Numbered from the stretch's first letter, positions 14,891 to 44,788 are shown. The stretch is DNA of 64,000 bases from Actinomycetes bacterium (GCA_023251915.1 JAHEXW010000002.1:46529-110528), one strand, 5' to 3'. Program-made: numbers and translations. Notes: generated from the sequence alone by a model not told the origin.

Positions 14891-15073
14891 CTAGAAGCAC
14901 CCCAACGAACAACCCATGACCTTTATTTCCAGCTCGTTGCAGGCCTTGCCGACAACCGTGTAGGGCAGGCCCAATCTTTCGGCGATCTCGCGCGCTTCGG
15001 GACAAGTGATCTTGCCCCCGGTTGCTGCAGCCTTTACCGCTTCCGCCAGTTCCGTTTTCTTCGCAGCGTCCAT
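14891..15073 (-). CDS. Small conserved-looking protein of unknown function; first ORF behind the riboswitch candidate
   Basis: 60 aa: MDAAKKTELAEAVKAAATGGKITCPEAREIAERLGLPYTVVGKACNELEIKVMGCSLGCF. Strong AAGGAG Shine-Dalgarno. Has a possible helix-turn-helix-like stretch and a C-terminal GCxxGC. I do not recognise the family. Confidence 0.4.
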   Translation of the reverse strand: MDAAKKTELAEAVKAAATGGKITCPEAREIAERLGLPYTVVGKACNELEIKVMGCSLGCF

Positions 15074-15096: not shown

Positions 15097-15262
15097 GACA
15101 AAAATAAACGCGCTTCCCCGCATAGTGGAAAGCGCATTCAGAGAACACACTTCTCTCCTTTCCAAGCGCGGGAGGCACAGAAATCGCTCGCTGTACCCTT
15201 TCCCGACTCAATCAGCCGGGATGCCCTCGCCGTCCGCGTGGGTGCGGCGAGGGTCGGAGAGT
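15097..15262 (-). ncRNA. Candidate riboswitch (probably Moco/Tuco class) with an intrinsic terminator, copy A
   Basis: Shares conserved blocks with copy B, in minus-strand reading order: CTCCGACC, CGAGCGATT, GCCTCCCG, TTGGAAAGGAG. Then a GC hairpin (15108-15134) and a U-tract (15098-15107). It sits upstream of the small ORF, tupB, tupC and moeA. Confidence 0.5.
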
Positions 15263-15436
15263 TTGTATGATTTGTTGCAATCTATGCTTTGAGAATACCA
15301 GGGTCGGCCCGGCTAAGTCAAGAGCCAAACACCGGCGTATGGCGGCCCACCAGCATTTAGTATTACAATGGTCGCGTCACCAGTCGACTTCATTACTCCA
15401 TTTAAGTGAAGTAATGAAGTATCAAGAAAGGGAACA

Positions 15437-17808: not shown

Positions 17809-18699
17809 TTAAGGGTTCCCTGTTGCCGCGCTGGGCGTGAACAAAGCCTGGCCGTATTTGGCCTTCCCGAACTTGCCGATGAGCTTTTGAACCTCGGGTG
17901 ATGTGATCCAGTCGACGAACTTCTTGGCGTCGACCTCGTTCACCTTGGCAAACTTCGCGTTGTTGACGATGATCACGCCATACGGATTGAAGAGGTCTTT
18001 CTGGTCCTCGACCAGTATCACCAGGCTGATGGATTTCTGAAGAGACAGAAACGTTCCGCGGTCGATCAGGATATAGGCCTGCTTTTCGTTGGCGATCTTC
18101 GCCGCCTCTCCCATGCCCTGCCCGACGTTAACGTACCAATCACCGGCGGGCGTAAGGGCAGCCTTTGTCCAGATCGACAACTCTTTAGTATAGGTGCCGG
18201 AGTTGTCGCCGCGGGTCACGAACGGCGCTTGCGCGGCCGCAATAGCCGCGAACGCTTTGGCGGGACTAGCGCCCTTGATACCGGCTGGATCGCTCGCCGG
18301 GCCGATAATCACGAAGTCGTTATACATTACGTCCTTGCGCAGAGAACCGAAGCCGTCTGCCATGAATTTGTCTTCTTTTGCCCGGGCGTGCACTAATAGA
18401 ACATCAGCTTCACCGCGCTGACCCATCGCAATCGCCTCGCCGGTTCCCACAGCGATTGGCTTTGTCTTGACGTTATATTTCTTGTCAAACATCGGCAGCA
18501 GATAATCAAGCAGGCCGGTATCGGCTGTGCTGGTGGTCGTCGCCAGAATCATGTTTGTCGCCGGCGGGAGCGGCTTGGCCGCCTGTTTCGTTTCCGTCTT
18601 TGTCGCACAGCCGAACGCTCCGATTGCCAGAAATAGTCCCAGAACAACCGCGGCCAGTGTTCGCAACATCGTCTTTTTCGTGCTTCTCAGCCCTTTCAT
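17809..18699 (-). CDS. tupA: Tungstate ABC transporter substrate-binding lipoprotein TupA
   Basis: Signal peptide with a lipobox-like GAFGC. Diagnostic TupA TTTS motif in ILATTTSTADTGLLDYL. Confidence 0.85.
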   Translation of the reverse strand: MKGLRSTKKTMLRTLAAVVLGLFLAIGAFGCATKTETKQAAKPLPPATNMILATTTSTADTGLLDYLLPMFDKKYNVKTKPIAVGTGEAIAMGQRGEADVLLVHARAKEDKFMADGFGSLRKDVMYNDFVIIGPASDPAGIKGASPAKAFAAIAAAQAPFVTRGDNSGTYTKELSIWTKAALTPAGDWYVNVGQGMGEAAKIANEKQAYILIDRGTFLSLQKSISLVILVEDQKDLFNPYGVIIVNNAKFAKVNEVDAKKFVDWITSPEVQKLIGKFGKAKYGQALFTPSAATGNP

Positions 18700-18727: not shown

Positions 18728-18898
18728 TAATAAAAAACGCGCTGCCCAAGGAAAAGGATAGCGCGCGTCAATAGACTATTCGTCGCTCCTTTCCAAATTC
18801 GGGAGGCGGGTCGATTGCTCGGCCCACCCTGACTCCCGGCCAAAACCCGGCCGGTCGATCGCCCCGGACATCCCAGAGGGACGGACGGGGTCGGAGTA
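18728..18898 (-). ncRNA. Candidate riboswitch (probably Moco/Tuco class) with an intrinsic terminator, copy B
   Basis: Same conserved blocks as copy A, in minus-strand reading order: CTCCGACC, CGAGCAATC, GCCTCCCG, TTGGAAAGGAG. Then a GCGCGCT/AGCGCG hairpin (18737-18768) and a U-tract. It sits immediately upstream of tupA. Confidence 0.5.
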
Positions 18899-19010
18899 AT
18901 ATTCGATTGTGACTAGAGGTTATCAGGCTTGTAACATATGTGTCAAGGAAATTGGGTAAGCAATTATCGCAAGATAGCTATGGTCTTGCATTTATCCGAG
19001 ACAGACCGGT

Positions 19011-19586
19011 CTATTTGAACCACTCTGTCACGTCTTGCCAGTTCTTTCTGGGTCGGGGAGAAGGAGATTCGTGCGGATAGCCAACGGCGACCGCAGCAAT
19101 CAACTGCTCTTTCTTGCCGACGGCTTGGCCGATCTTCCGCGCCGCTAGAAAAACATAGCCGAGCCACACAGTTCCCAGCCCCAGTTCTTGGGCGGCCAGC
19201 AACATCGTTTGAATCGAACCGCCGATCGACTGTACGTCGAGGACATTGACGATCGTGGATAATGGCCTTATCAGACCACGTTTACGGCTGGCTCCGTTAA
19301 AAACCAGAATGAGCACCGGCGCGCTTTGCATGAGGTTGGTCGTGGCCGCCGCGCCGCTGATGAGAGTCTTGAACCGCTTTAGGCGGACCACTCGCTTGAC
19401 GAGTATGGCGACGACTTCGTCTTTCTTGGCGCCTTCTAAAACGACGAAGCGCCAGGGTTGCCGGTTGGTAGAGGATGGCGCCTTGGTCGCCGCCTCCAAC
19501 ATTTTTTCGATTAGTTCAGCCGGAACTTTGGCGTCGGTGAATTTCCTGATGCTTCTGCGGCTGTAGATAGCGTCTAGAGTATCCAT
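19011..19586 (-). CDS. Nitroreductase family protein (FMN-dependent)
   Basis: Begins MDTLDAIYSRRSIRKFTD and contains APSSTNRQPWRFVV, a nitroreductase signature. Confidence 0.85.
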   Translation of the reverse strand: MDTLDAIYSRRSIRKFTDAKVPAELIEKMLEAATKAPSSTNRQPWRFVVLEGAKKDEVVAILVKRVVRLKRFKTLISGAAATTNLMQSAPVLILVFNGASRKRGLIRPLSTIVNVLDVQSIGGSIQTMLLAAQELGLGTVWLGYVFLAARKIGQAVGKKEQLIAAVAVGYPHESPSPRPRKNWQDVTEWFK

Positions 19587-19603
19587 CGCCGGCGCCTCTA
19601 GGG

Positions 19604-19813
19604 CTAGCTTCTGTTCTTGGGATTAAAAAGCGGGAAGTTACTCGCCTCGAAGGTTTGATAGTCGGGACATTTCCGGCAGTGCGGCCGCAAGCAGAACCCG
19701 TTGATCTGGTCCTTTTCAAGAGTGTCTGCCGCGCCCGGCAATTCGCAATGGTAGTGACCGCTCTCCGTCTTGGCGACGAACGGACAGTTCAATTCCCCCG
19801 GTCGTTCACACAT
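19604..19813 (-). CDS. Small Cys/His-rich protein (putative metal-binding)
   Basis: 69 aa with seven Cys and four His: MCERPGELNCPFVAKTESGHYHCELPGAADTLEKDQINGFCLRPHCRKCPDYQ. Tightly packed between the AAA-like gene and the nitroreductase. Confidence 0.5.
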   Translation of the reverse strand: MCERPGELNCPFVAKTESGHYHCELPGAADTLEKDQINGFCLRPHCRKCPDYQTFEASNFPLFNPKNRS

Positions 19814-19822
19814 AATGCGCTC

Positions 19823-20740
19823 CTAAAACGTATAGTAATGCGAACAGTCCAGCTCGCGCAGTTCCTTATATTTCTCGGTCATGTCCGGTGTCAGCCACGG
19901 CTCAATCTCGCCGACAGCCTGCAGGAAATGCGGCATCTCGATCTTGGCCGAGCCGGCCTTGACGGCGTTGAGCGCCGCACGCTTGCATAGATTCTCCAGG
20001 TCCCAACCGACAAAACCCTCAGTTTTCTCGGCGAGCTGCGCGTAGTCTATCTCGCCGCCCAGATTCGGCTCCAAGCGCTTGATGTAGATGCGCAGTATGC
20101 CCTCACGATCGGCCGCTGTAGGCGGATGAACAAAAATTTTTCTGTTGAACCGGCTCTTTTCCTTAACCAGAGCCTGGTCGACCACGTCGATCCGATAACA
20201 CGAGCCGGCTAGCGCTACACCGGTAGCGACTGTGTTTACGTCGCCGCCTCCTTGCAGCTTATCGATTTCTTCTAGAAACACGGTCGTCAAATCCTTGTCA
20301 GCAAAAGTCGGCGGGATGCCGCGGCGGTTGCCCGGCGCCCAATCGTAGTCGGCTCCGGCCCGCGGCGCTAGCCACTCTACGTCGCTAATGAACAAAACAC
20401 AGGGGGCCTTCTCTTGCGCCTCGGCAAACGCTTTGCGCAGTTCCTCGGGTTTACCCAACATCTCTTGGCCGGAAACGTAGATATAATGCGCCCCGGCGTC
20501 CTTAGCGGACGCTTCGGCCAGCATCTTGATACCGGTGCCGAGCGGACCCCACATCAGAACGCCCATTGGCGGCTCGATATTCATTTCCTTAATCATGTCC
20601 GGATTCTTCAGGGGCAGTGAGATCATTTCCTGCAATATCTCTTTGATGTCGTCAAAGCCGCCGACGTCGTCCCAATTAACCCGGGGTGGACGGCTCAGAT
20701 AGTAAACGCCGCCTTCGCCGTGATGGTGGTCATGATGCAC
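19823..20740 (-). CDS. AAA+ family protein with degenerate Walker A and Walker B motifs (probable pseudo-ATPase)
   Basis: AAA core similar to FtsH/CDC48, including an arginine-finger region KSRFNRK. The P-loop reads GPLGTGIKM where GPPGTGKT is expected. Walker B reads LFISDVEW where hhhhDE is expected. N-terminal His-rich tag MHHDHHHGEGG. Confidence 0.65.
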   Translation of the reverse strand: MHHDHHHGEGGVYYLSRPPRVNWDDVGGFDDIKEILQEMISLPLKNPDMIKEMNIEPPMGVLMWGPLGTGIKMLAEASAKDAGAHYIYVSGQEMLGKPEELRKAFAEAQEKAPCVLFISDVEWLAPRAGADYDWAPGNRRGIPPTFADKDLTTVFLEEIDKLQGGGDVNTVATGVALAGSCYRIDVVDQALVKEKSRFNRKIFVHPPTAADREGILRIYIKRLEPNLGGEIDYAQLAEKTEGFVGWDLENLCKRAALNAVKAGSAKIEMPHFLQAVGEIEPWLTPDMTEKYKELRELDCSHYYTF

Positions 20741-20751
20741 TTTTTGTCCTC

Positions 20752-21546
20752 CTATACCGGGATTGACGGCTCGAATACGATCCGGTCAAAACCTTGCTTC
20801 GTGAGTTCTTCGTCCGACTGAATGTCTTGGTTTTCATAAAACTGGGCGTTTCCGGCCACCCAAACCGGCCGGTTAAAGATATCGGCCGTCTCTTCTATCA
20901 TACCCTGCCGGCAGACCCGTCCGCATTCACCCGCGATGTTTAGCCACCGCCCATCCTGGAAAGCGAACGGACAATATCGGGTGGTGGTGACGTAACCATA
21001 AGGCGCGTACAAAGATGCCGTCAGACCGGAGTCAGTAAAATCGGATGTCATTCCTTGGGGCAGATTGTCCAATTCGACGCGGCCAACACCCTTGTCTTTC
21101 AGGTACTTCCGCAGAATCGGGGAGTCAAAGATCGACGCACGCCAGTCTTCAGCCAAAGCGGGCCCGGCGTCGGCCTTTCGCGACGAGATACCGAAGCCGC
21201 GTTTCTGACCTGACAGGAGCCGGCCCAGAACGGGTGTGAGATCAGGTCGCTCTTGCCGCAGCTGAAGCATCGTCCCATAGTCGTTACAGACAACCTCGAT
21301 CGACCGATCGGCAGGCAGCGATAGAAATACGTCGCGTAACAATGTTAGGCCACGGTCGGTGACATACGGTGTTACTAAGGTGAAGCCGAGACCGGAATCA
21401 GCCGCAGTCAGGCTGGCGGCGGCGGTCTCCTCAACCCCGGGAATCTTGATCTCGCAAAATTCCGCGCCGAAATACAGCCTGTCGAAACCGGCCGGATCGA
21501 ACTTATCGGGAATGTCGGTCAGGTAGACAGCGCGCTCCACGGTCAT
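20752..21546 (-). CDS. Peptidase U32 family protein, short form (UbiV/TrhP2-like)
   Basis: U32-fold matches: FDRLYFGAEFCEIK resembles the UbiV YLGEAVCS region, DYGTMLQLRQERPDL is typical, and there are C-terminal Cys residues (RYCPFAF, GECGRVC). The gene boundary overlaps the upstream U32 gene. Confidence 0.6.
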   Translation of the reverse strand: MTVERAVYLTDIPDKFDPAGFDRLYFGAEFCEIKIPGVEETAAASLTAADSGLGFTLVTPYVTDRGLTLLRDVFLSLPADRSIEVVCNDYGTMLQLRQERPDLTPVLGRLLSGQKRGFGISSRKADAGPALAEDWRASIFDSPILRKYLKDKGVGRVELDNLPQGMTSDFTDSGLTASLYAPYGYVTTTRYCPFAFQDGRWLNIAGECGRVCRQGMIEETADIFNRPVWVAGNAQFYENQDIQSDEELTKQGFDRIVFEPSIPV

Positions 21547-22484
21547 CAGTCCTCTGCCGGAAAATAGCAGGAATATGGGTCGCAGCCGGAGTCGAACATG
21601 TCGACATGGACGTGCCGCGCCATCTCAGCCATCGCGCCTGGTCCGGCTCCCGTCAGCGACACGTCTCGCAATGCCGCGATGGCCCGGACCGCCTGCAGCT
21701 TTTCTTCCGTGCGACGGCCCCGACCCGCGATCTTCACGGCTGCCAGCCCGGCTTTTTCCAGCTCATAATAGCCGCATAAGCCGCAGGCATTGCCCCGGGG
21801 CGTGCCGGACCAAGTTGCCTGAACCGCCGCCGCCGGAGTCGCTGCGGCTGCGGGCACCAGATCGCAAGGATAGCCGCAGGGCCAAATATGTTCGGGGCTG
21901 TCGTCATGGAAGAAGGAACACAAGCCTTCCACGTTCGGACATTTGCCGTACATTAGAAAGGCCTCAAAATCCATTTCGGGTTCCGCGGCGATTATCCGCG
22001 CCGCCTCCGCGGTCGTCAGAGAACGGTCGAGCACCACGCGGGCCGCGCCCAAATCCCCATAGAAACGAGCGGCGGCCGAGTTCATTACGCCAGCCAAGAT
22101 GCTTATGTGGAGCTCTATGGGAAAACGCCGCCGTTTAATCTCCAGGATAAGACCGGGGTCGGCAACAATGAGCGCATCTATCTTAAGATTCACGGCCCTC
22201 TCCACTTCACTCAGCACCAGGGGAAGTTGCGCGGCGGAATAGAAGTTGTTATTAAGGGTCAAAAAGAACGGGCGGGACAGAGCGTGGGCGGCTGCAACTC
22301 CGGCGGTCAGTTCAGCGGCCGTGGAGAATTGCGCGTCCGCGAAGGTGCGTTTGTTAAGGGAGCCGACGTCGGCATAGGCGATGTTCCATTCAGCCGGCAC
22401 AAAGCCGCCGTAGAACTCGTCGGCCCCTGCTTCGGCCAAGATGCCAATCTCCTCAACATGATCAACCGGCGCTAGAATCCTCAT
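21546..22484 (-). CDS. Peptidase U32 family protein (UbiU/TrhP/RlhA-like, putative 4Fe-4S prephenate-dependent hydroxylase component)
   Basis: RILAPVDHVEEIGILAEAGADEFYGG, FFLTLNNNF and DALIVADPG resemble the U32 consensus (ELLAPAGNLE, ADAVYLG, VTLNTL, DAIIVSD). Has a Cys cluster GKCPNVEGLCSFFH...CGYPC and a KIAGRGRR motif that resembles UbiU KIEGRQRS. Confidence 0.65.
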   Translation of the reverse strand: MRILAPVDHVEEIGILAEAGADEFYGGFVPAEWNIAYADVGSLNKRTFADAQFSTAAELTAGVAAAHALSRPFFLTLNNNFYSAAQLPLVLSEVERAVNLKIDALIVADPGLILEIKRRRFPIELHISILAGVMNSAAARFYGDLGAARVVLDRSLTTAEAARIIAAEPEMDFEAFLMYGKCPNVEGLCSFFHDDSPEHIWPCGYPCDLVPAAAATPAAAVQATWSGTPRGNACGLCGYYELEKAGLAAVKIAGRGRRTEEKLQAVRAIAALRDVSLTGAGPGAMAEMARHVHVDMFDSGCDPYSCYFPAED

Positions 22485-22514: not shown

Positions 22515-25500
22515 CTATCGTACCGTTACCACGGTCGGTTGCGACCAGCCGGATACCGTGCCGTTGGCAACAACGGTCTCGACCTTAGTCTCATAGTTTC
22601 CAGCTAACGACCACGTGTGCGTCTCTATAGCCGGCCACATATTAAAAATCTCGGCGGTTGTGTAGAATCTTGTCGTCGTTGTCGACCCGTCTCCCCAAGC
22701 GAAAACGAATCTGATCGGCTCGAAGATAAGCCTGTTGGCAAGAACCGCGGTGTACGTGGCACGCGTGTTGCACACGACGGCCGCCGGGCCTGTCGGCGTC
22801 AAAGGAACAGGCAGCGGCGTCTGGTTGATAGTAATCCTCAGCGGTAATGACGTTTCCGATTTCGCTCCCCGCGCGTCTGTCGCCTTTACCAAAACGGTAT
22901 AGACGCCTACCTCGTTCCAAATGTGAGTGATTTCGCCGGCCATTCCCGACGGGCTCGTACCTGTCGAGCCGGACGTTCCGTCGCCCCAATCAAATGTGTA
23001 GCCTACTCCATCACCGTCGAGGTCGGTAGCTAAGGCGGACACCGAAACCGGCCGCTTGGCGAAACCGGTCGGACCGCCTACTATATTCGGGATCCCGGGT
23101 GCGTGATTAATGCCGACGGTCAGCGCCTCCGACCACCCGGTCCAGCCATCGGTGCTAGCGTCTCCGACTCTGACTTTGACCGCGAATTCGCCGCCTGTCG
23201 GCCAGTGATGGGAGAGACTAGCCGTCGCGCCAGACGACACGCCAGCGGTTTCGCTCGTTGTTCCGTCACCCCAGTCAAAAACATAGGTTAACGAATCGCC
23301 GTTGGCGTCTTGCGCCACGGTCGTGTAGGTAAGCTCGTCGCCGGGATTAGCGGAGACGGGCCCGTCCGGTCGCGCGGGAACGCCCGGCAGTTCATTTCTG
23401 ACCGCCACGCGCTTGGGCTGAGACCAGACGGATACGGCACCCAGATCGTTGGCGGCGCGAACCCTGACGTCATACTCTTCCGTCGCTGCAGCTGTTATTC
23501 GTTGCCAAATATGCGGAACTGATACCAGTGTTCCGGAAGATACTGCGGCAGTGGTCTCGGTCGTTCCGTCACCCCAGTCAAACGTATAGCATACGTTACG
23601 GCCGGCCGGGTCACGCGACGCCGCTGCGTACCCAACCGACTGACCAAACAGGACCGACGCCGATCCGGATGGCGCCTGCGGCACGTCCGGGGCACCGCAA
23701 ATCTGAATCACTGTATCCTCCATCGCCCAACCCGAGGACAAGCCCCACACGTCAGTCGACCTGATCTTTATGGTAAACAATCCGGCGGACGCCCAGGCGT
23801 GGGACATTGAAACTTCGGTCCTTGACTCGACAGATTCGCTCGTACTGGTCGTACCGTCGCCCCAATCGAACGTAAAAGCCAACCGGTCATCATCCGGGTC
23901 ATAGCCAGCCGTGTTGAACGAGTAGCTTTGGCCGGTAATTCCCAAGCTCGGCCCGCCGGCACTGGCGGGCGGCATAGGCGCCTGGTTAATAAAAACGCTG
24001 GCCGGCGGAGACCAACCGGATGTTACGCCCAGTTCATCCACCGCTCTAACCTTGACCTGGTATGTGCCCCCTAGGTTCCAGGTATGACTGAGGGTTGCTC
24101 CGACACCGCCGGATGCCAGCAAGGCTGATTCATCGGTTCCGCCATCGCCCCAATCGAAAACATACTTTACTCTGTGGTTGTCCGGGTCGGTCGTAACGGC
24201 CGAAAAACTCCCGCTGGCGCCTAACTCCACAGCCAGGGGACCCTGCGGTTTGGCCGGCGTTAGCGGCGTTGAGTCATGAGCCGTAATATTCAGGGAAGAG
24301 CACCAACCGGATGCCGCGCCGGTCGAATCAATGGCCTTTACCTTAACCAGATAGGCTCCGCCGGCCGGCCACACATGCGTCGCGGTACCGTAGATGTTTG
24401 AGCTATATTCCCAGTAGGCATAGTACCTAGTCGTGGTCGTCGTACCGTCGCCCCAATCGAACAGGTATTGAATGTCCTGGTGTTCCGGATCACTCGACCG
24501 GGCGCGATAGGAATATTCCAACCCGACGGTTGCGGCTGATGTACCGGACAGGTTCGACGGTGTCCCGGGCGCCCGGGTCAGAATGGTGACAGACAGTGTC
24601 GATGACCAGACGGACGCCGTGTTATAGATATCGGTTGCTTTGACCTTAACCGCGTAGACCCCGCTGGCCGGCCAGCTGTGGGAGGCGGAGGCGGCCGCAC
24701 CCGAAGCCAGAGCGTTAGTGTCCGTAGTCGTTCCGTCGCCCCAGTCGAACGTGTATATCAGCTGGTCAACGTTGCCATCTGTGGTGCTGCTGGTATACGT
24801 TGCCGGAGTTGCCGTGTACATCGACGCCGTGCCGCTAGGAGTTGCCGGTTTAACGGGTGCGACATTGTCGGCTGGAAAAACGTACACCGTCGCGGTCGAA
24901 ATAGTCGATCGCGCTCCAAACTGATCCATCGCCCGCAACCGTACCGTATATGTGCCCTTGGTTGTCCAGGTGTGCGTTGCGGCGGCGGTACTGCCCGACC
25001 CAAGCCAACCGGTCTTGCTTGTCGTTCCGTCGCCCCAGTCGAACGTATACTGGATTTGATCGCCCTCGGGGTCGGATGACGAAGTGTTAAAGGAACCGGT
25101 CAGGTTCTGACCCACCCGTATGTCACCCTGCAGCGCGGCCGGCGCCGTCGGTCCGTGGTCAATGATATGGATCTCGTTGACGTTTGACCACGCAGAAACC
25201 CGGCCGTCTTGGGTTATGGCCTTGGCTTTAACCTGGAACAGGCCCGGCGCGGTCCAGGTGTGCGCCAGCGTGACCGTTCCGCCCGAATACGTCTGGAAGG
25301 ATGTGTCGGTTGTACCGTCTCCCCAATCGAAGACATATGTCATCGGCCGGCCGGCGCCATCGGTGGTAGCTGTGCTGAAATTAACGGAAACGCCCTTGAA
25401 ATAGGTTGTAATCCAGTATTGGTCCAGTTCGGGAATACCCGGCGCGGGCGGAGCCTCCAGCCTGACGGTGACCCAAGTGGCCGCGGACCAGGCCGATACG

Positions 25501-28427
25501 AGTCCCGTGGCATCGGTTGCCTTGACCCGGACAGGATAGACACCGGGAGCTGTCCAAGCATGGGCCTGGGACATCGAAAATCCCGGATATTCTGCCCAGC
25601 TGGTCGTTGACGTACCATCGCCCCAGTCAAATACATATGTAACCCGATTCTGATCAGGGTCGTCACTTGTAGTTGTGTAGCCGACTAGTTCGCCCGTATA
25701 GGCATTGACGTAACCAGTCACAACAGGCACAGTTGGCGGATGATTGGCGGCAGCCACTGTTACGCTGGTCGGCGGACCCCAATCAGACGTCTGACCGTAT
25801 GAATCAGTCGCCTTGACCTTGATACTATAAGAACCCGTCGCCGTCCAGATATGCGAGGTGAAGGGGCAATAGTTGTAAGGGTAGTCACCAATCGACGTTG
25901 TCGTGCCGTCACCCCAGTCTATCGTGTACGAAATCTCGTCCTGGTCTGCATCGCCGCAGTTGCTAAGCGTAAAACGCGCTTCCACATCCGGCGCCGCGGT
26001 CGAACTGCCTTGCATGGCCGGTGCGTTGGGCAAGTTGTTCGCACCCGTTATTATCATCGACAGCGGATCAGACCAAGCCGAACTCTCGCCGTCAGCCGCC
26101 ACCGTCTTAACCCGAAGAGCGTACGTTCCCGCGGCGGCCCAGGTGTGCGACGTGCCCAGCGCCGACCCCATCCACCAGTCGACATTGTAAAAGGTAGTCG
26201 AGGTCTGCGGTGTACCGTCGCCCCAATCAAACACTAGTTTAAGATCCCTATAGAATAAGTCTTGCGCCCATGCAAAATAGTTCCTAGTAGTGTTGGGCGG
26301 CAAATGGGTTTTTCCGAACGGTGTACCGGGCGTGGTTATAGGCGCTCCGACGTCAATCTCGACCGGACTTGACCAAGACGACGTCTCGCCGTCCGCGTTT
26401 ACCGTACGCGCCTTTATGAAATAGGCGCCCGCGGCGGTCCAGGTATGGTCGGCCTGAACGAAATCGACGCTCATCATGTATTCGGAAAACGCATAGAGAC
26501 GCGTCGTTGTCGTCGTTCCGTCGCCCCAATCGATGACAACCCGGCACGGTTCCAGATTGTAATCCATCACCTGGAGACCATAATTGCAATATTGGTTGAC
26601 GCGCAGCCAGACACTGCCGGTTGTGAACATCGGCGGTTCCGGGGTCCGCGGAACAGTCACGTGAGCGACGGCAACGACATCGTGACCATCGAGATCGGTA
26701 ACCGTTAGTCTGAGTTCGTATATCCCGCCGGACAGGCCGGTCGCGTCCCATGATCCAAGGCTTCCATTGGAAACGGGTGTCGCCGAACTGGTGACCGTAT
26801 GCCAGGCGGCCGGGGTTGTTCCGGCGCCCCACTCCAGCTTGAAGGAGGCGAACCGAGGGCCGGTCGCCGTACCGGTAATCGCCACGACGTCTTTTGCGAC
26901 GCCGCTGTCCACGGGCGAAGAAATAGCGGCTTTTGTCTGGCCGGCCTGCAACGCGGCTGCGGCGTTGATTCGGCCGTAGCCATAATATTGGTCCCAACCG
27001 GGGGCTCCCTTGTCATCTGCGGTTTGTTCAATCATGTATTGCAGGTCGGCGGGGCTCGCGTCCGGATAGCGGCTTTTCAACAGCGCCGCGACGCCGGATA
27101 CGCTGGGGCAGGCCATTGAGGTGCCGGACAACGTTCCATAGCCGTGGTTATCTCCTAAGGAAGAAGTCTCAAATGTCGGCAACGTCGAATAGATGCGGGA
27201 GCCGGGGGCTGCGACATCAACGAACGGCCCGAAATTAGAGTAGCTGGCCCTGGTGTCGTTGTGGTCGGTCGCGGCGACAGTCAACACATTCTCCAAATCT
27301 GCCGGGTAGAAAAGACCCTCGCTATTTTCGTTACCGGCCGCGCCCACTACCAGACAGCCCGCGCCCGTCGCATCGTTTACGGCGTCCTGCAGCGCTTGGC
27401 TGTAACCGCCGCCGCCCCAGCTGTTGTTGATGATGTCAGCGCCATGTGCTTGCGCATAACGAATCGCTTTGACCGCGTCGGACGTCAGCCCGCTGCCATT
27501 CCACTCTAGGAACTTAAGCGGCATGATCTTGACGTTCCAGTTCACGCCGGTGATGCCAAACCCGTTATTACCGCAAGCGCCGATGATGCCGGACACGTGG
27601 GTGCCGTGCCCGTGGTCGTCCAGGGGGTCCGCGCAAACTGTCTTGTACAGTACGGGGTCCGCCCAGCCGTAGGCGAAACACCAACCTCTAACGTCATCGA
27701 TATAACCGTCGTGGTCATCATCAAGATTATTCGTCGCCATATCACGACCCTGCGCGTCGATTCCCATTTCGCCGGCGTTGGTCCAAACGTTACCGGCTAG
27801 ATCGGTATGGGTGTAGTCAATGCCGGTGTCGATTACGGCAACTATGACGTCCGTGCTGCCGGTCGTAGTATCCCAAGCCGTCGTGGCCTTAATATCGGCG
27901 CCGCTCGTCCCGCCCGTCTGACCGGTATTCTTTAAGTTCCAGAGCTTGCTGAAATCGGTGTCGCTGGGTATCGTTTCGCAAGTATGGACGACGTAGTCCG
28001 GCTCGGCATAAGCGACTGTCGGGGATTGTTTTAACGTCGCATCGGCCTGCTTAACGCTGGTTCCCTTTTTCAAGTGAACAATAGCTACGTCGCTGTCGCC
28101 GATTGTTTCTTCGATTTTGCCGATCGGTGCTACAGCGGCGGCGATTTCAGCCTCGCTGGCGGACGACTTAAAACTAACAATGATTTGGTCAGATTTGTAC
28201 TCTACGTCTGTGTCCTTGATAACCGCGTTTCCGCTTAGAGAAATTCTGGCTGCAGACGGGGTTGCCCGAGAGTCAAGCACTGGCTTTTGTGGCAAGTCGG
28301 GAGAGGCGGATTGCCGATTGCGCAATTCCGTGAGGCGAGTCGGCGCGGCCTGAGGTTTGCCGGACAGCACAATAAGGATGGCTAAAACAGAAGCGACTGC
28401 TCCAAAAAATACTATCGTCCGCCGCAC
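22515..28427 (-). CDS. Secreted S8 subtilisin-like serine peptidase carrying 14 tandem PKD-like domains (1970 aa)
   Basis: Signal peptide, a probable I9 inhibitor propeptide, and the catalytic triad DTGID (D200), HGTHVSG (H275), GTSMACP (S436). Then 14 repeats of about 93 aa, each built around [YF]xFDWGDGT. Confidence 0.85.
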   Translation of the reverse strand: MRRTIVFFGAVASVLAILIVLSGKPQAAPTRLTELRNRQSASPDLPQKPVLDSRATPSAARISLSGNAVIKDTDVEYKSDQIIVSFKSSASEAEIAAAVAPIGKIEETIGDSDVAIVHLKKGTSVKQADATLKQSPTVAYAEPDYVVHTCETIPSDTDFSKLWNLKNTGQTGGTSGADIKATTAWDTTTGSTDVIVAVIDTGIDYTHTDLAGNVWTNAGEMGIDAQGRDMATNNLDDDHDGYIDDVRGWCFAYGWADPVLYKTVCADPLDDHGHGTHVSGIIGACGNNGFGITGVNWNVKIMPLKFLEWNGSGLTSDAVKAIRYAQAHGADIINNSWGGGGYSQALQDAVNDATGAGCLVVGAAGNENSEGLFYPADLENVLTVAATDHNDTRASYSNFGPFVDVAAPGSRIYSTLPTFETSSLGDNHGYGTLSGTSMACPSVSGVAALLKSRYPDASPADLQYMIEQTADDKGAPGWDQYYGYGRINAAAALQAGQTKAAISSPVDSGVAKDVVAITGTATGPRFASFKLEWGAGTTPAAWHTVTSSATPVSNGSLGSWDATGLSGGIYELRLTVTDLDGHDVVAVAHVTVPRTPEPPMFTTGSVWLRVNQYCNYGLQVMDYNLEPCRVVIDWGDGTTTTTRLYAFSEYMMSVDFVQADHTWTAAGAYFIKARTVNADGETSSWSSPVEIDVGAPITTPGTPFGKTHLPPNTTRNYFAWAQDLFYRDLKLVFDWGDGTPQTSTTFYNVDWWMGSALGTSHTWAAAGTYALRVKTVAADGESSAWSDPLSMIITGANNLPNAPAMQGSSTAAPDVEARFTLSNCGDADQDEISYTIDWGDGTTTSIGDYPYNYCPFTSHIWTATGSYSIKVKATDSYGQTSDWGPPTSVTVAAANHPPTVPVVTGYVNAYTGELVGYTTTSDDPDQNRVTYVFDWGDGTSTTSWAEYPGFSMSQAHAWTAPGVYPVRVKATDATGLVSAWSAATWVTVRLEAPPAPGIPELDQYWITTYFKGVSVNFSTATTDGAGRPMTYVFDWGDGTTDTSFQTYSGGTVTLAHTWTAPGLFQVKAKAITQDGRVSAWSNVNEIHIIDHGPTAPAALQGDIRVGQNLTGSFNTSSSDPEGDQIQYTFDWGDGTTSKTGWLGSGSTAAATHTWTTKGTYTVRLRAMDQFGARSTISTATVYVFPADNVAPVKPATPSGTASMYTATPATYTSSTTDGNVDQLIYTFDWGDGTTTDTNALASGAAASASHSWPASGVYAVKVKATDIYNTASVWSSTLSVTILTRAPGTPSNLSGTSAATVGLEYSYRARSSDPEHQDIQYLFDWGDGTTTTTRYYAYWEYSSNIYGTATHVWPAGGAYLVKVKAIDSTGAASGWCSSLNITAHDSTPLTPAKPQGPLAVELGASGSFSAVTTDPDNHRVKYVFDWGDGGTDESALLASGGVGATLSHTWNLGGTYQVKVRAVDELGVTSGWSPPASVFINQAPMPPASAGGPSLGITGQSYSFNTAGYDPDDDRLAFTFDWGDGTTSTSESVESRTEVSMSHAWASAGLFTIKIRSTDVWGLSSGWAMEDTVIQICGAPDVPQAPSGSASVLFGQSVGYAAASRDPAGRNVCYTFDWGDGTTETTAAVSSGTLVSVPHIWQRITAAATEEYDVRVRAANDLGAVSVWSQPKRVAVRNELPGVPARPDGPVSANPGDELTYTTVAQDANGDSLTYVFDWGDGTTSETAGVSSGATASLSHHWPTGGEFAVKVRVGDASTDGWTGWSEALTVGINHAPGIPNIVGGPTGFAKRPVSVSALATDLDGDGVGYTFDWGDGTSGSTGTSPSGMAGEITHIWNEVGVYTVLVKATDARGAKSETSLPLRITINQTPLPVPLTPTGPAAVVCNTRATYTAVLANRLIFEPIRFVFAWGDGSTTTTRFYTTAEIFNMWPAIETHTWSLAGNYETKVETVVANGTVSGWSQPTVVTVR
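22518..26630 (-). repeat. Coding tandem repeat array (about 280 nt period) encoding the PKD domains of the S8 peptidase
   Basis: Fourteen recurrences of the FDWGDGTT-encoding unit at roughly 93-codon spacing. The DNA copies are divergent. Confidence 0.6.
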
Positions 28428-28910: not shown

Positions 28911-28996
<86 letters not shown>

Positions 28997-44714: not shown

Positions 44715-44788
44715 TGGGGCGTGGCCAAGTGGTAAGGCTCGGGACTTTGGCTCCCGGATCGAAGGTTCGAATCCTTCCGCCCCAGCCA
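44715..44788 (+). tRNA. tRNA-Gln (anticodon TTG)
   Basis: Manual fold. Acceptor TGGGGCG/CGCCCCA, D-arm GCCAAGTGGTAAGGC, anticodon arm CGGGA-CTTTGGC-TCCCG, T-arm GAAGG-TTCGAAT-CCTTC, discriminator G, CCA. Closely resembles E. coli tRNA-Gln. Confidence 0.85.

Follow-up and report, generated by a model that had tools for sequence, protein, structure and literature searches.

We analysed a 64,000-nucleotide stretch of a contig from an Actinomycetes bacterium (GCA_023251915.1, JAHEXW010000002.1:46529-110528; hereafter the window) and in particular five genes packed on its minus strand between positions 19,011 and 22,484. A preliminary description, made from the sequence alone, had read them as two U32-family paralogues, an AAA+ protein with altered motifs, a Cys/His-rich mini-protein and a nitroreductase, which together might form an uncharacterised O2-independent hydroxylation or modification system. 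Everything reported here rests on computation with the genomes of uncultured organisms. We refer to the genes as A to E:

A: 21546-22484, minus strand, 312 amino acids, U32-family protein, predicted catalytic Fe-S subunit (UbiU-like)
B: 20752-21546, minus strand, 264 amino acids, probable cryptic U32-like (UbiV-like) partner, everywhere annotated as hypothetical protein
C: 19823-20740, minus strand, 305 amino acids with a GTG start, VAT/Cdc48-D2-type AAA+ protein with degenerate catalytic motifs
D: 19604-19813, minus strand, 69 amino acids, six-cysteine mini-protein
E: 19011-19586, minus strand, 191 amino acids, nitroreductase-family flavoprotein

The five genes are real and lie where they had been placed; an independent assembly of the contig has the identical five called. 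The stop of A and the start of B overlap by 1 nucleotide, and the gaps B/C, C/D and D/E measure 11, 9 and 17 nucleotides. Each of the five starts is preceded by a Shine-Dalgarno-like (AGGAG-like) site, that of C being TAGGAGGACAAAAAGTG, and in two cases the ribosome-binding site overlaps the preceding stop codon. A and B are, judging from their overlap, translationally coupled, and the 9–11-nucleotide gaps together with the stops inside ribosome-binding sites indicate coupled expression. We found no convincing internal terminator (7 terminator-like sites versus 4.8 ± 2.7 by chance), and promoter-like matches within the five-gene block showed no excess over the shuffled expectation.

The five-gene composition itself is not conserved. 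The widely conserved unit is A-B alone, and the points of interest are the hidden partner family to which B belongs and the repeated association of the pair with a catalytically dead AAA+ protein.

A U32 protein and its probable cryptic partner

Protein A matches the U32 profile PF01136 with 84.7 bits (cutoff 22.4, E=8e-24). Its best NCBIfam matches are UbiU with 82 bits (NF047963, cutoff 440) and TrhP with 77.4 bits (NF011996, cutoff 534), and by these scores it is a genuine U32 protein but neither a UbiU nor a TrhP equivalog. The AlphaFold2 model is a TIM barrel with a predicted local distance difference test (pLDDT) score of 87.7, in which the cysteine loop at residues 181–230 has low confidence, which is usual where an Fe-S site is modelled without its cluster. 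Seven cysteines (C182, C189, C203, C234, C237, C301 and C306) are invariant in all 72 members of the A family, while C207, at the CX3C position, is not conserved among them. The published motifs are CX6CX16CX38C for UbiU, CXnCX12CX3C for UbiV and CX6CX15CX3/4C for U32 proteins in general (Pelosi 2019, PMC6747719). The A pattern C182-X6-C189-X13-C203...C234 resembles both the UbiU and the general motif, with C234 UbiU-like in position. The three extra cysteines C237, C301 and C306, which are undescribed for UbiU, are accompanied by a nearly invariant H193 and their invariance suggests a second metal site.

B is the less obvious partner. The expectation that both proteins would match U32 profiles held for A only: B has no Pfam match at E<=0.1 (PF01136 included), no NCBIfam match and no PDB sequence match in phmmer searches, and BLASTP detects no similarity between B and A. 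The relationship to U32 is visible only when families are compared, that is, against the family of its own neighbour, where hhalign aligns the B and A families with a probability of 93.6–94.3% and E=1e-7 to 2e-7 over 108–157 columns, superposing C192, C208 and C212 of B on C182, C203 and C207 of A. The B profile reaches E=0.007 against the single UbiU sequence and is not significant against the single UbiV sequence. The AlphaFold2 model of B is likewise a TIM barrel (pLDDT 90.6), and its top Foldseek match in the PDB is the U32 structure 5d88 (Mk0906), the only solved U32 structure that we found. Four cysteines, C31, C192, C208 and C212, are invariant or nearly so; they follow the spacing CXnCX15CX3C, with the first cysteine far upstream as in UbiV, and all four are retained even in homologues with just 24–28% identity. 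The profile comparison, the TIM-barrel model and the conserved cysteine motif together identify B as a probable UbiV-like partner, a cryptic and highly diverged U32 paralogue which, as far as profile searches can tell, lies outside the present PF01136 definition. The earlier description of two U32 paralogues holds at the Pfam level for A and fails there for B, for which the profile–profile comparison supports it.

Relatives of B were found in at least 514 genomes in a scan with one genome per species, all of them metagenome-assembled (MAGs) or single-amplified genomes (SAGs). The hosts belong to Actinomycetota, Omnitrophota, Thermodesulfobacteriota, Nitrospirota, Chloroflexota, Planctomycetota, Acidobacteriota, Bacillota and Elusimicrobia and, among Archaea, to DPANN, Bathyarchaeia, Hadarchaeota and Helarchaeota. 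For the neighbourhoods we took the best 80 matches per scan, so that the frequencies given here are not genome-wide rates, and the open reading frames (ORFs) at the retrieved loci are uncurated, having been taken from stop to stop and screened with phmmer. An A-type U32 gene is adjacent to B and co-directional with it in 69 of the 81 distinct species-level loci, which come from many phyla; the order is A-B in 49 of these and B-A in 20. At six further loci the A-type gene lies 0.7–5.6 kb from B, and at three it is missing despite full flanks.

Some genomes carry several A-B pairs. One locus (L063) holds three, two of them in tandem, and multiple copies were also seen in L049, L050 and L047 (with L063, from Omnitrophota and Myxococcales) and in a single Undinarchaeota genome (L018/L035/L067). 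The flanks of these multicopy pairs often encode B12-binding and Tes/GDGT-MAS-like radical S-adenosylmethionine (SAM) proteins (Zn_ribbon_HMPTM), DegT aminotransferases, GlcD/GlcF-like flavoproteins and ETF. Such flanks suggest a diversified small-molecule or lipid chemistry.

Outside Actinomycetota, the A-B pairs nearest to that of the window have a gene for a CobM/CbiF-like methyltransferase of the tetrapyrrole type (TP_methylase) directly upstream (L154 1468-2244, L148, L144, L022 8937-9743 and L059), with scores far below the equivalog cutoffs. The Nitrospirota B-A pairs, which contain the closest non-actinobacterial A proteins, are among those preceded by this methylase. It is a possible clue to the class of substrate.

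The dead AAA+ protein C and the small proteins beside it

C matches the AAA profile PF00004 (E=9e-15) and the lid profile AAA_lid_3 PF17862 (E=2.3e-14), and among PDB chains it matches Thermoplasma VAT best (whole chain E=2e-78, D2 domain aligned at 4.5e-43). The preliminary description had called its Walker A lysine shifted and its Walker B degenerate; the alignment with VAT shows that catalytic and pore motifs are lost. In Walker A, the GKT of VAT D2 has become GIK, and the window has GPLGTGIKM where other clades have GPLGxGITM. The catalytic lysine is therefore not shifted, as had been described, but replaced by isoleucine, which occupies the position in at least 90% of the aligned members; a lysine at the threonine position occurs only in the actinobacterial clade. 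Walker B reads FISDxE, with DE changed to SD, and the sensor-1 segment GATNR has become GSCYR, with tyrosine in place of asparagine. The aromatic pore loop 1 (K-WVGE-S) is deleted relative to VAT D2. C retains a single arginine from the second region of homology, and its lid is conserved. After these losses in Walker A, Walker B, sensor 1 and pore loop 1, C would not be able to act as an ATP-driven unfoldase.

The degenerate family is at the same time under strong constraint. Its alignment has a mean column identity of 71% across Actinomycetota, Nitrospirota and Desulfuromonadales, and C proteins of Actinomycetota and Desulfuromonadales are 57–60% identical. The substituted positions are themselves fixed (S119, D120, Y182 and R183 are invariant), and the family has gained an invariant insert, PGNxRGIPPTFADK, and an invariant C-terminal motif, DC[PS]H[HY]Y.F; the N-terminus is rich in histidine. 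By these features C is most readily described as a strongly constrained pseudo-ATPase and not as an unfoldase. A search of defence models in PADLOC gave no match for A, B, D or E and for C only a weak, partial likeness to IetA (generic AAA, E=5e-11), and we rejected an anti-phage defence system on this ground, the similarity of C being no more specific than to AAA proteins at large. Cultured carriers of the C family are found in Deferrisoma (L085 is Deferrisoma camini), Geoalkalibacter and Desulfuromonas, which makes the family experimentally tractable.

The association of C with the U32 pair takes two forms. Among the 81 B loci, C and D occur only in the actinobacterial relatives of the window, where A-B-C-D is intact in seven of seven loci whose B proteins are 42–89% identical to that of the window. 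A metagenome scan with the C family revealed a second arrangement, in which a 293-residue form of C is nearly always followed by a gene with an FmdE domain and then by an ArsP_1 permease; the nearest relatives of this permease are SaoE and the Cu/Zn efflux transporters of the SO_0444 type, with scores far below the family cutoffs. Beyond it lie CarboxypepD_reg/DUF4198 proteins, then NosD/PQQ-type or FG-GAP proteins, and HSP20 is often nearby. We saw this cluster in L085, in two Nitrospirota loci (L087/L088) and in metagenome loci within L097–L172, and its gene content seems metal-related in flavour. At nine metagenome loci of this second lineage A-B stands directly upstream of C, giving the order A-B-C-FmdE-permease, and the TP_methylase gene precedes A there. 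One Nitrospirota assembly encodes both A-B and C on separate contigs. The arrangement A-B-C is therefore recurrent within a sub-clade: the observation that C and D accompany the U32 pair holds for one actinobacterial clade, and in the form A-B-C-FmdE for a second lineage.

D has six cysteines and three histidines, not the seven and four first counted. All six cysteines (C2, C10, C23, C41, C46 and C49), with a spacing that includes C-X4-C-X2-C, are invariant among its few relatives, as is the C-terminal NFPLFNPKNR. D has no Pfam or NCBIfam match, and an exhaustive HMMER search of 1.84 billion representatives returned one other true cluster at 50% identity, two other matches being discarded as spurious eukaryotic Ig-repeat proteins. 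D follows C in every actinobacterial relative examined. That it might be a truncated FmdE was considered and rejected, since there is no BLASTP alignment and the hhalign probability is 0.2%; D appears to be a clade-specific protein in the slot held elsewhere by FmdE, without detectable homology to it.

E matches the nitroreductase profile PF00881 with 111.5 bits (E=6e-32) and no specific NCBIfam equivalog. It is probably co-transcribed with the unit but is not a conserved member of it. In the closest relative (L005, B 89% identical) D is directly followed by a Mo/W binding-protein gene instead of E, and E is likewise missing behind D in L002, L006, L090 and L092; the L091 contig ends about 400 bases past D and is too short to judge. 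Of the Pfam assignments first proposed for the block, those of A, C and E stand and that of B fails. In 80 genome loci there was one E-like match, 5 kb away and on the opposite strand. The idea of the nitroreductase as an integral redox partner is thus unsupported by conservation and was dropped, and with it the expectation that the five-gene unit would recur in relatives: its conserved core is A-B.

The genes around the block

Several other features of the window surround the five genes:

44715-44785, plus strand, tRNA gene (Rfam)
28914-28996, minus strand, tRNA gene (Rfam)
22515-28427, minus strand, S8/PKD protease gene, 1970 amino acids, ending 30 nucleotides upstream of A
18770-18908, minus strand, molybdenum cofactor (Moco) riboswitch RF01055, 49 bits, about 100 nucleotides after E and before a PBP_like_2 gene (17809-18699)
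15140-15271, minus strand, Moco riboswitch RF01055, 53.5 bits, before a 60-amino-acid ORF and ModB/ModC-like, MoeA, MoaA, MoaC and MogA-like genes
14891-15073, minus strand, the 60-amino-acid ORF, ending ...GCSLGCF, directly behind the second Moco riboswitch

The riboswitch at 18770-18908 opens a separate Mo/W-transport unit downstream of E, and we rejected a common operon of the Mo/W genes with A–E in view of their separate Moco riboswitches and their orientation. The 60-amino-acid ORF has no Pfam or NCBIfam match but is conserved at this place ahead of ModB in L002, L006, L090 and L092; it may encode a small protein related to Mo/W and controlled by the riboswitch. In three of these relatives a gene for a YHS-domain protein (52–53 amino acids, metal-binding) immediately precedes A (L002 8882-9040, L090 5884-6042, L092 5881-6042), whereas the 64 kb of the window contain no such gene.

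On the upstream side, the end of the S8 gene lies so close to A that the transcription unit may extend further upstream. The encoded protein is of a secreted type, with a Fervidolysin-like propeptide, an S8 domain and more than 12 PKD-like modules, each containing FDWGDGT; no tandem repeats were detected in the gene at the DNA level. We saw an S8-like gene upstream of A only in the window and in the closest relative, L005, where it is shorter (731 amino acids). The tRNA gene at 28914-28996 separates the S8 protease gene from a Ppx/enolase housekeeping block.

Possible function and relation to known systems

Hydroxylation by U32 Fe-S enzymes needs no O2 and depends on prephenate (PMC6747719, PMC10990095, PMC11574389), and an assay of such activity by labelling with 18O-prephenate has been described (PMC10990095). 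By analogy with UbiUV, TrhP and RlhA we propose that A-B is a UbiU/UbiV-like Fe-S hydroxylase working without O2, with C and D as non-enzymatic accessories and E as a local addition, a reading to which we give roughly even chances. A and B would most likely form a heterodimer with one [4Fe-4S] cluster per subunit and would oxidise their substrate without O2, most likely by hydroxylation, in strict anaerobes; prephenate may be the oxygen donor. C would most likely serve as a rigid scaffold or adaptor, as its extreme conservation suggests, and would possibly bind metal through the histidine-rich N-terminus and the C-terminal Cys/His motif. The C-X4-C-X2-C spacing and the three more cysteines of D suggest a small Fe-S or Zn protein, plausibly an electron carrier or cluster donor. 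E looks like a recent lineage-specific insertion; if it is co-expressed, it could act as an opportunistic flavin redox partner that donates or accepts electrons.

A number of observations weigh against this proposal. A is so far below the UbiU and TrhP cutoffs that neither substrate nor reaction type can be transferred from these enzymes. The neighbours of A-B differ widely among phyla (B12 radical SAM, DegT, GlcD/GlcF-like, ETF, tetrapyrrole-type methylase), so that a single substrate does not emerge. Among C loci with sufficient upstream sequence, 5 of 35 have A-B beside C; with most loci lacking the pair, C may serve a different process and only sometimes neighbour A-B. The system, moreover, was found throughout in MAGs, SAGs or metagenome contigs.

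It can be asked whether the unit, or at least C-D, is concerned with the trafficking and maturation of metals or metallocofactors instead of being a metabolic hydroxylase. C would then be a non-ATPase metallochaperone or scaffold, D or FmdE its cysteine-rich metal-binding partner, and A-B would modify or assemble the cofactor, for example a metallophore or a molecule of the tetrapyrrole or pterin type. The surroundings speak for it in several ways: the actinobacterial A-B-C-D always adjoins an ABC-2 exporter and the block of Moco-riboswitch Mo/W uptake and Moco biosynthesis genes, even where B is 42% identical, the YHS metal-binding domain is encoded before A in L002, L090 and L092, C elsewhere is almost invariably found with FmdE, the Cu/Zn-efflux-like permease, CarboxypepD_reg/DUF4198 and NosD/PQQ proteins and often HSP20, the CobM/CbiF-like methylase stands beside the closest non-actinobacterial A-B pairs, and A has its three extra invariant cysteines. 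However, the Mo/W genes form separate riboswitched units, with an oppositely oriented exporter between them and A-B-C-D, and their adjacency may be synteny inherited in a single lineage; FmdE takes its name from operon context and nothing more, the scores of the permease and the methylase are far below family cutoffs, and the A-B pairs of most phyla do not have such neighbours. We consider a role in metal handling rather unlikely on balance, about to the same degree as the possibility that the operon is a mosaic in which independent modules, A-B, C-D and E, are co-transcribed without any physical or pathway link. A mosaic would explain why A-B has none of C, D and E with it at about 75 of the 81 distinct genome loci, why C stands without A-B at most of its own loci, why E is unique to this contig and why D has nearly no relatives beyond the clade. 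It fits less well with the recurrence of the order A-B-C in two lineages whose B proteins are just 24–28% identical and whose fourth gene differs (D versus FmdE), with the contiguity of the four genes in Actinomycetota while the gene upstream changes (YHS, alpha/beta hydrolase, S8 protease), or with the 9–11-nucleotide gaps and the stops overlapping ribosome-binding sites, which point to coupled expression.

An ATP-dependent protease, made of a U32 collagenase-type peptidase and an AAA+ unfoldase and perhaps working with the upstream S8 protease, would be in keeping with the historical annotation of U32 as a peptidase/collagenase family, with the resemblance of C to the D2 of Cdc48/VAT and to PAN, which feed proteases, and with the end of the S8 gene 30 nucleotides upstream of A. 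But the motifs needed for unfolding are those that C has lost (Walker A lysine, Walker B DE, sensor-1 asparagine and aromatic pore loop), A and B retain invariant Fe-S-type cysteine motifs, and the S8-like gene is found upstream in the window and, in a shorter form, in the closest relative only. We regard such a protease, with either the U32 or the S8 protein, as highly improbable and rejected it on the grounds of the C motifs.

Returning to the proposed UbiU/UbiV-like hydroxylase, we can also envisage a wider version of it, which is speculative and in our opinion doubtful as a whole. Within the sub-clade of Actinomycetota, Nitrospirota and a Desulfobacterota-like lineage, A-B would form a complex with a dead Cdc48/VAT-like AAA+ ring and a cysteine-rich mini-protein or FmdE and would oxygenate, without O2, a metallocofactor-type substrate (such as a tetrapyrrole or a pterin/metal ligand), while A-B in general would represent a large, unrecognised heterodimeric class of U32 enzymes in anaerobic Bacteria and Archaea (DPANN, Asgard, Bathyarchaeia, Omnitrophota), with a second subunit that present domain libraries do not see. 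If the reading of a complex with a dead AAA+ protein is true, it would add a new reaction scope for U32 and provide the first bacterial classic-clade pseudo-AAA+ protein acting as an enzyme scaffold.

To our knowledge, no enzymes other than the U32 Fe-S "oxidases" hydroxylate without O2 from an organic oxygen donor (prephenate), and we know of only three U32 reaction types: on ubiquinone, on tRNA (ho5U) and on rRNA (ho5C). The occurrence of the B family in hundreds of uncultured anaerobic lineages means that heterodimeric U32 enzymes, and their substrates, may exceed what domain-based surveys have counted, and the family would deserve a profile of its own. The C family is a strongly conserved yet catalytically dead Cdc48-like class of its own. 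In the searchable literature we found no U32 pair with such a partner, no system of U32 with AAA and FmdE/ArsP and no such pseudo-AAA+ family, in agreement with the earlier impression that no U32 system of this composition has been described.

How does the unit compare with the systems that are known? C shares with the D2 of VAT/Cdc48/p97 and with PAN the AAA and lid_3 matches, the one arginine of the second region of homology and the lid; it differs from the D2 of VAT/Cdc48/p97 in being a single AAA domain with no N-domain and in the loss of the catalytic motifs and of pore loop 1. Like A, the U32 RNA hydroxylases TrhP, YrrN-YrrO and RlhA have a U32 domain with conserved cysteines, and YrrN/YrrO are also an adjacent pair of U32 genes; these enzymes make 5-hydroxyuridine (ho5U34) and 5-hydroxycytidine (ho5C2501) in an O2-independent, prephenate-linked reaction (PMC6599085, PMC5727448). 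A differs in scoring 77.4 bits against the TrhP cutoff of 534 and in having neither DUF3656 nor any other domain C-terminal to U32, and the presence of several tandem A-B copies per genome, next to genes of biosynthetic appearance (radical SAM, DegT, methylase), speaks against one housekeeping RNA as the target.

The closest parallel is UbiU-UbiV (YhbU/YhbV of E. coli), and the resemblance to this pair first noted for the window is borne out, with A as a bona fide U32 protein and B as a remote, apparently UbiV-like one with four invariant cysteines. Both systems consist of two adjacent co-directional genes for proteins of about 260–330 amino acids, both partners are predicted TIM barrels, and UbiU is the best NCBIfam match of A. 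In each, one partner has the pattern CX6C...C...C and the other a first cysteine far upstream (CXnCX12CX3C in UbiV, CXnCX15CX3C in B). The differences are also clear. A reaches 82 bits against the UbiU cutoff of 440, and UbiV matches PF01136 whereas B fails. A gene for UbiT/SCP2 is not among the called neighbours on the window contig or in the relatives, and the three extra invariant cysteines of A, the pseudo-AAA+ protein C and the six-cysteine D have no Ubi counterpart. The hosts differ as well, being anaerobic Actinomycetota, DPANN, Asgard, Omnitrophota and others for A-B and ubiquinone-making Proteobacteria for UbiU-UbiV. Judged by its sequence features, the system would work most like UbiU-UbiV, while its place is outside the UbiU, UbiV, TrhP and RlhA equivalogs.

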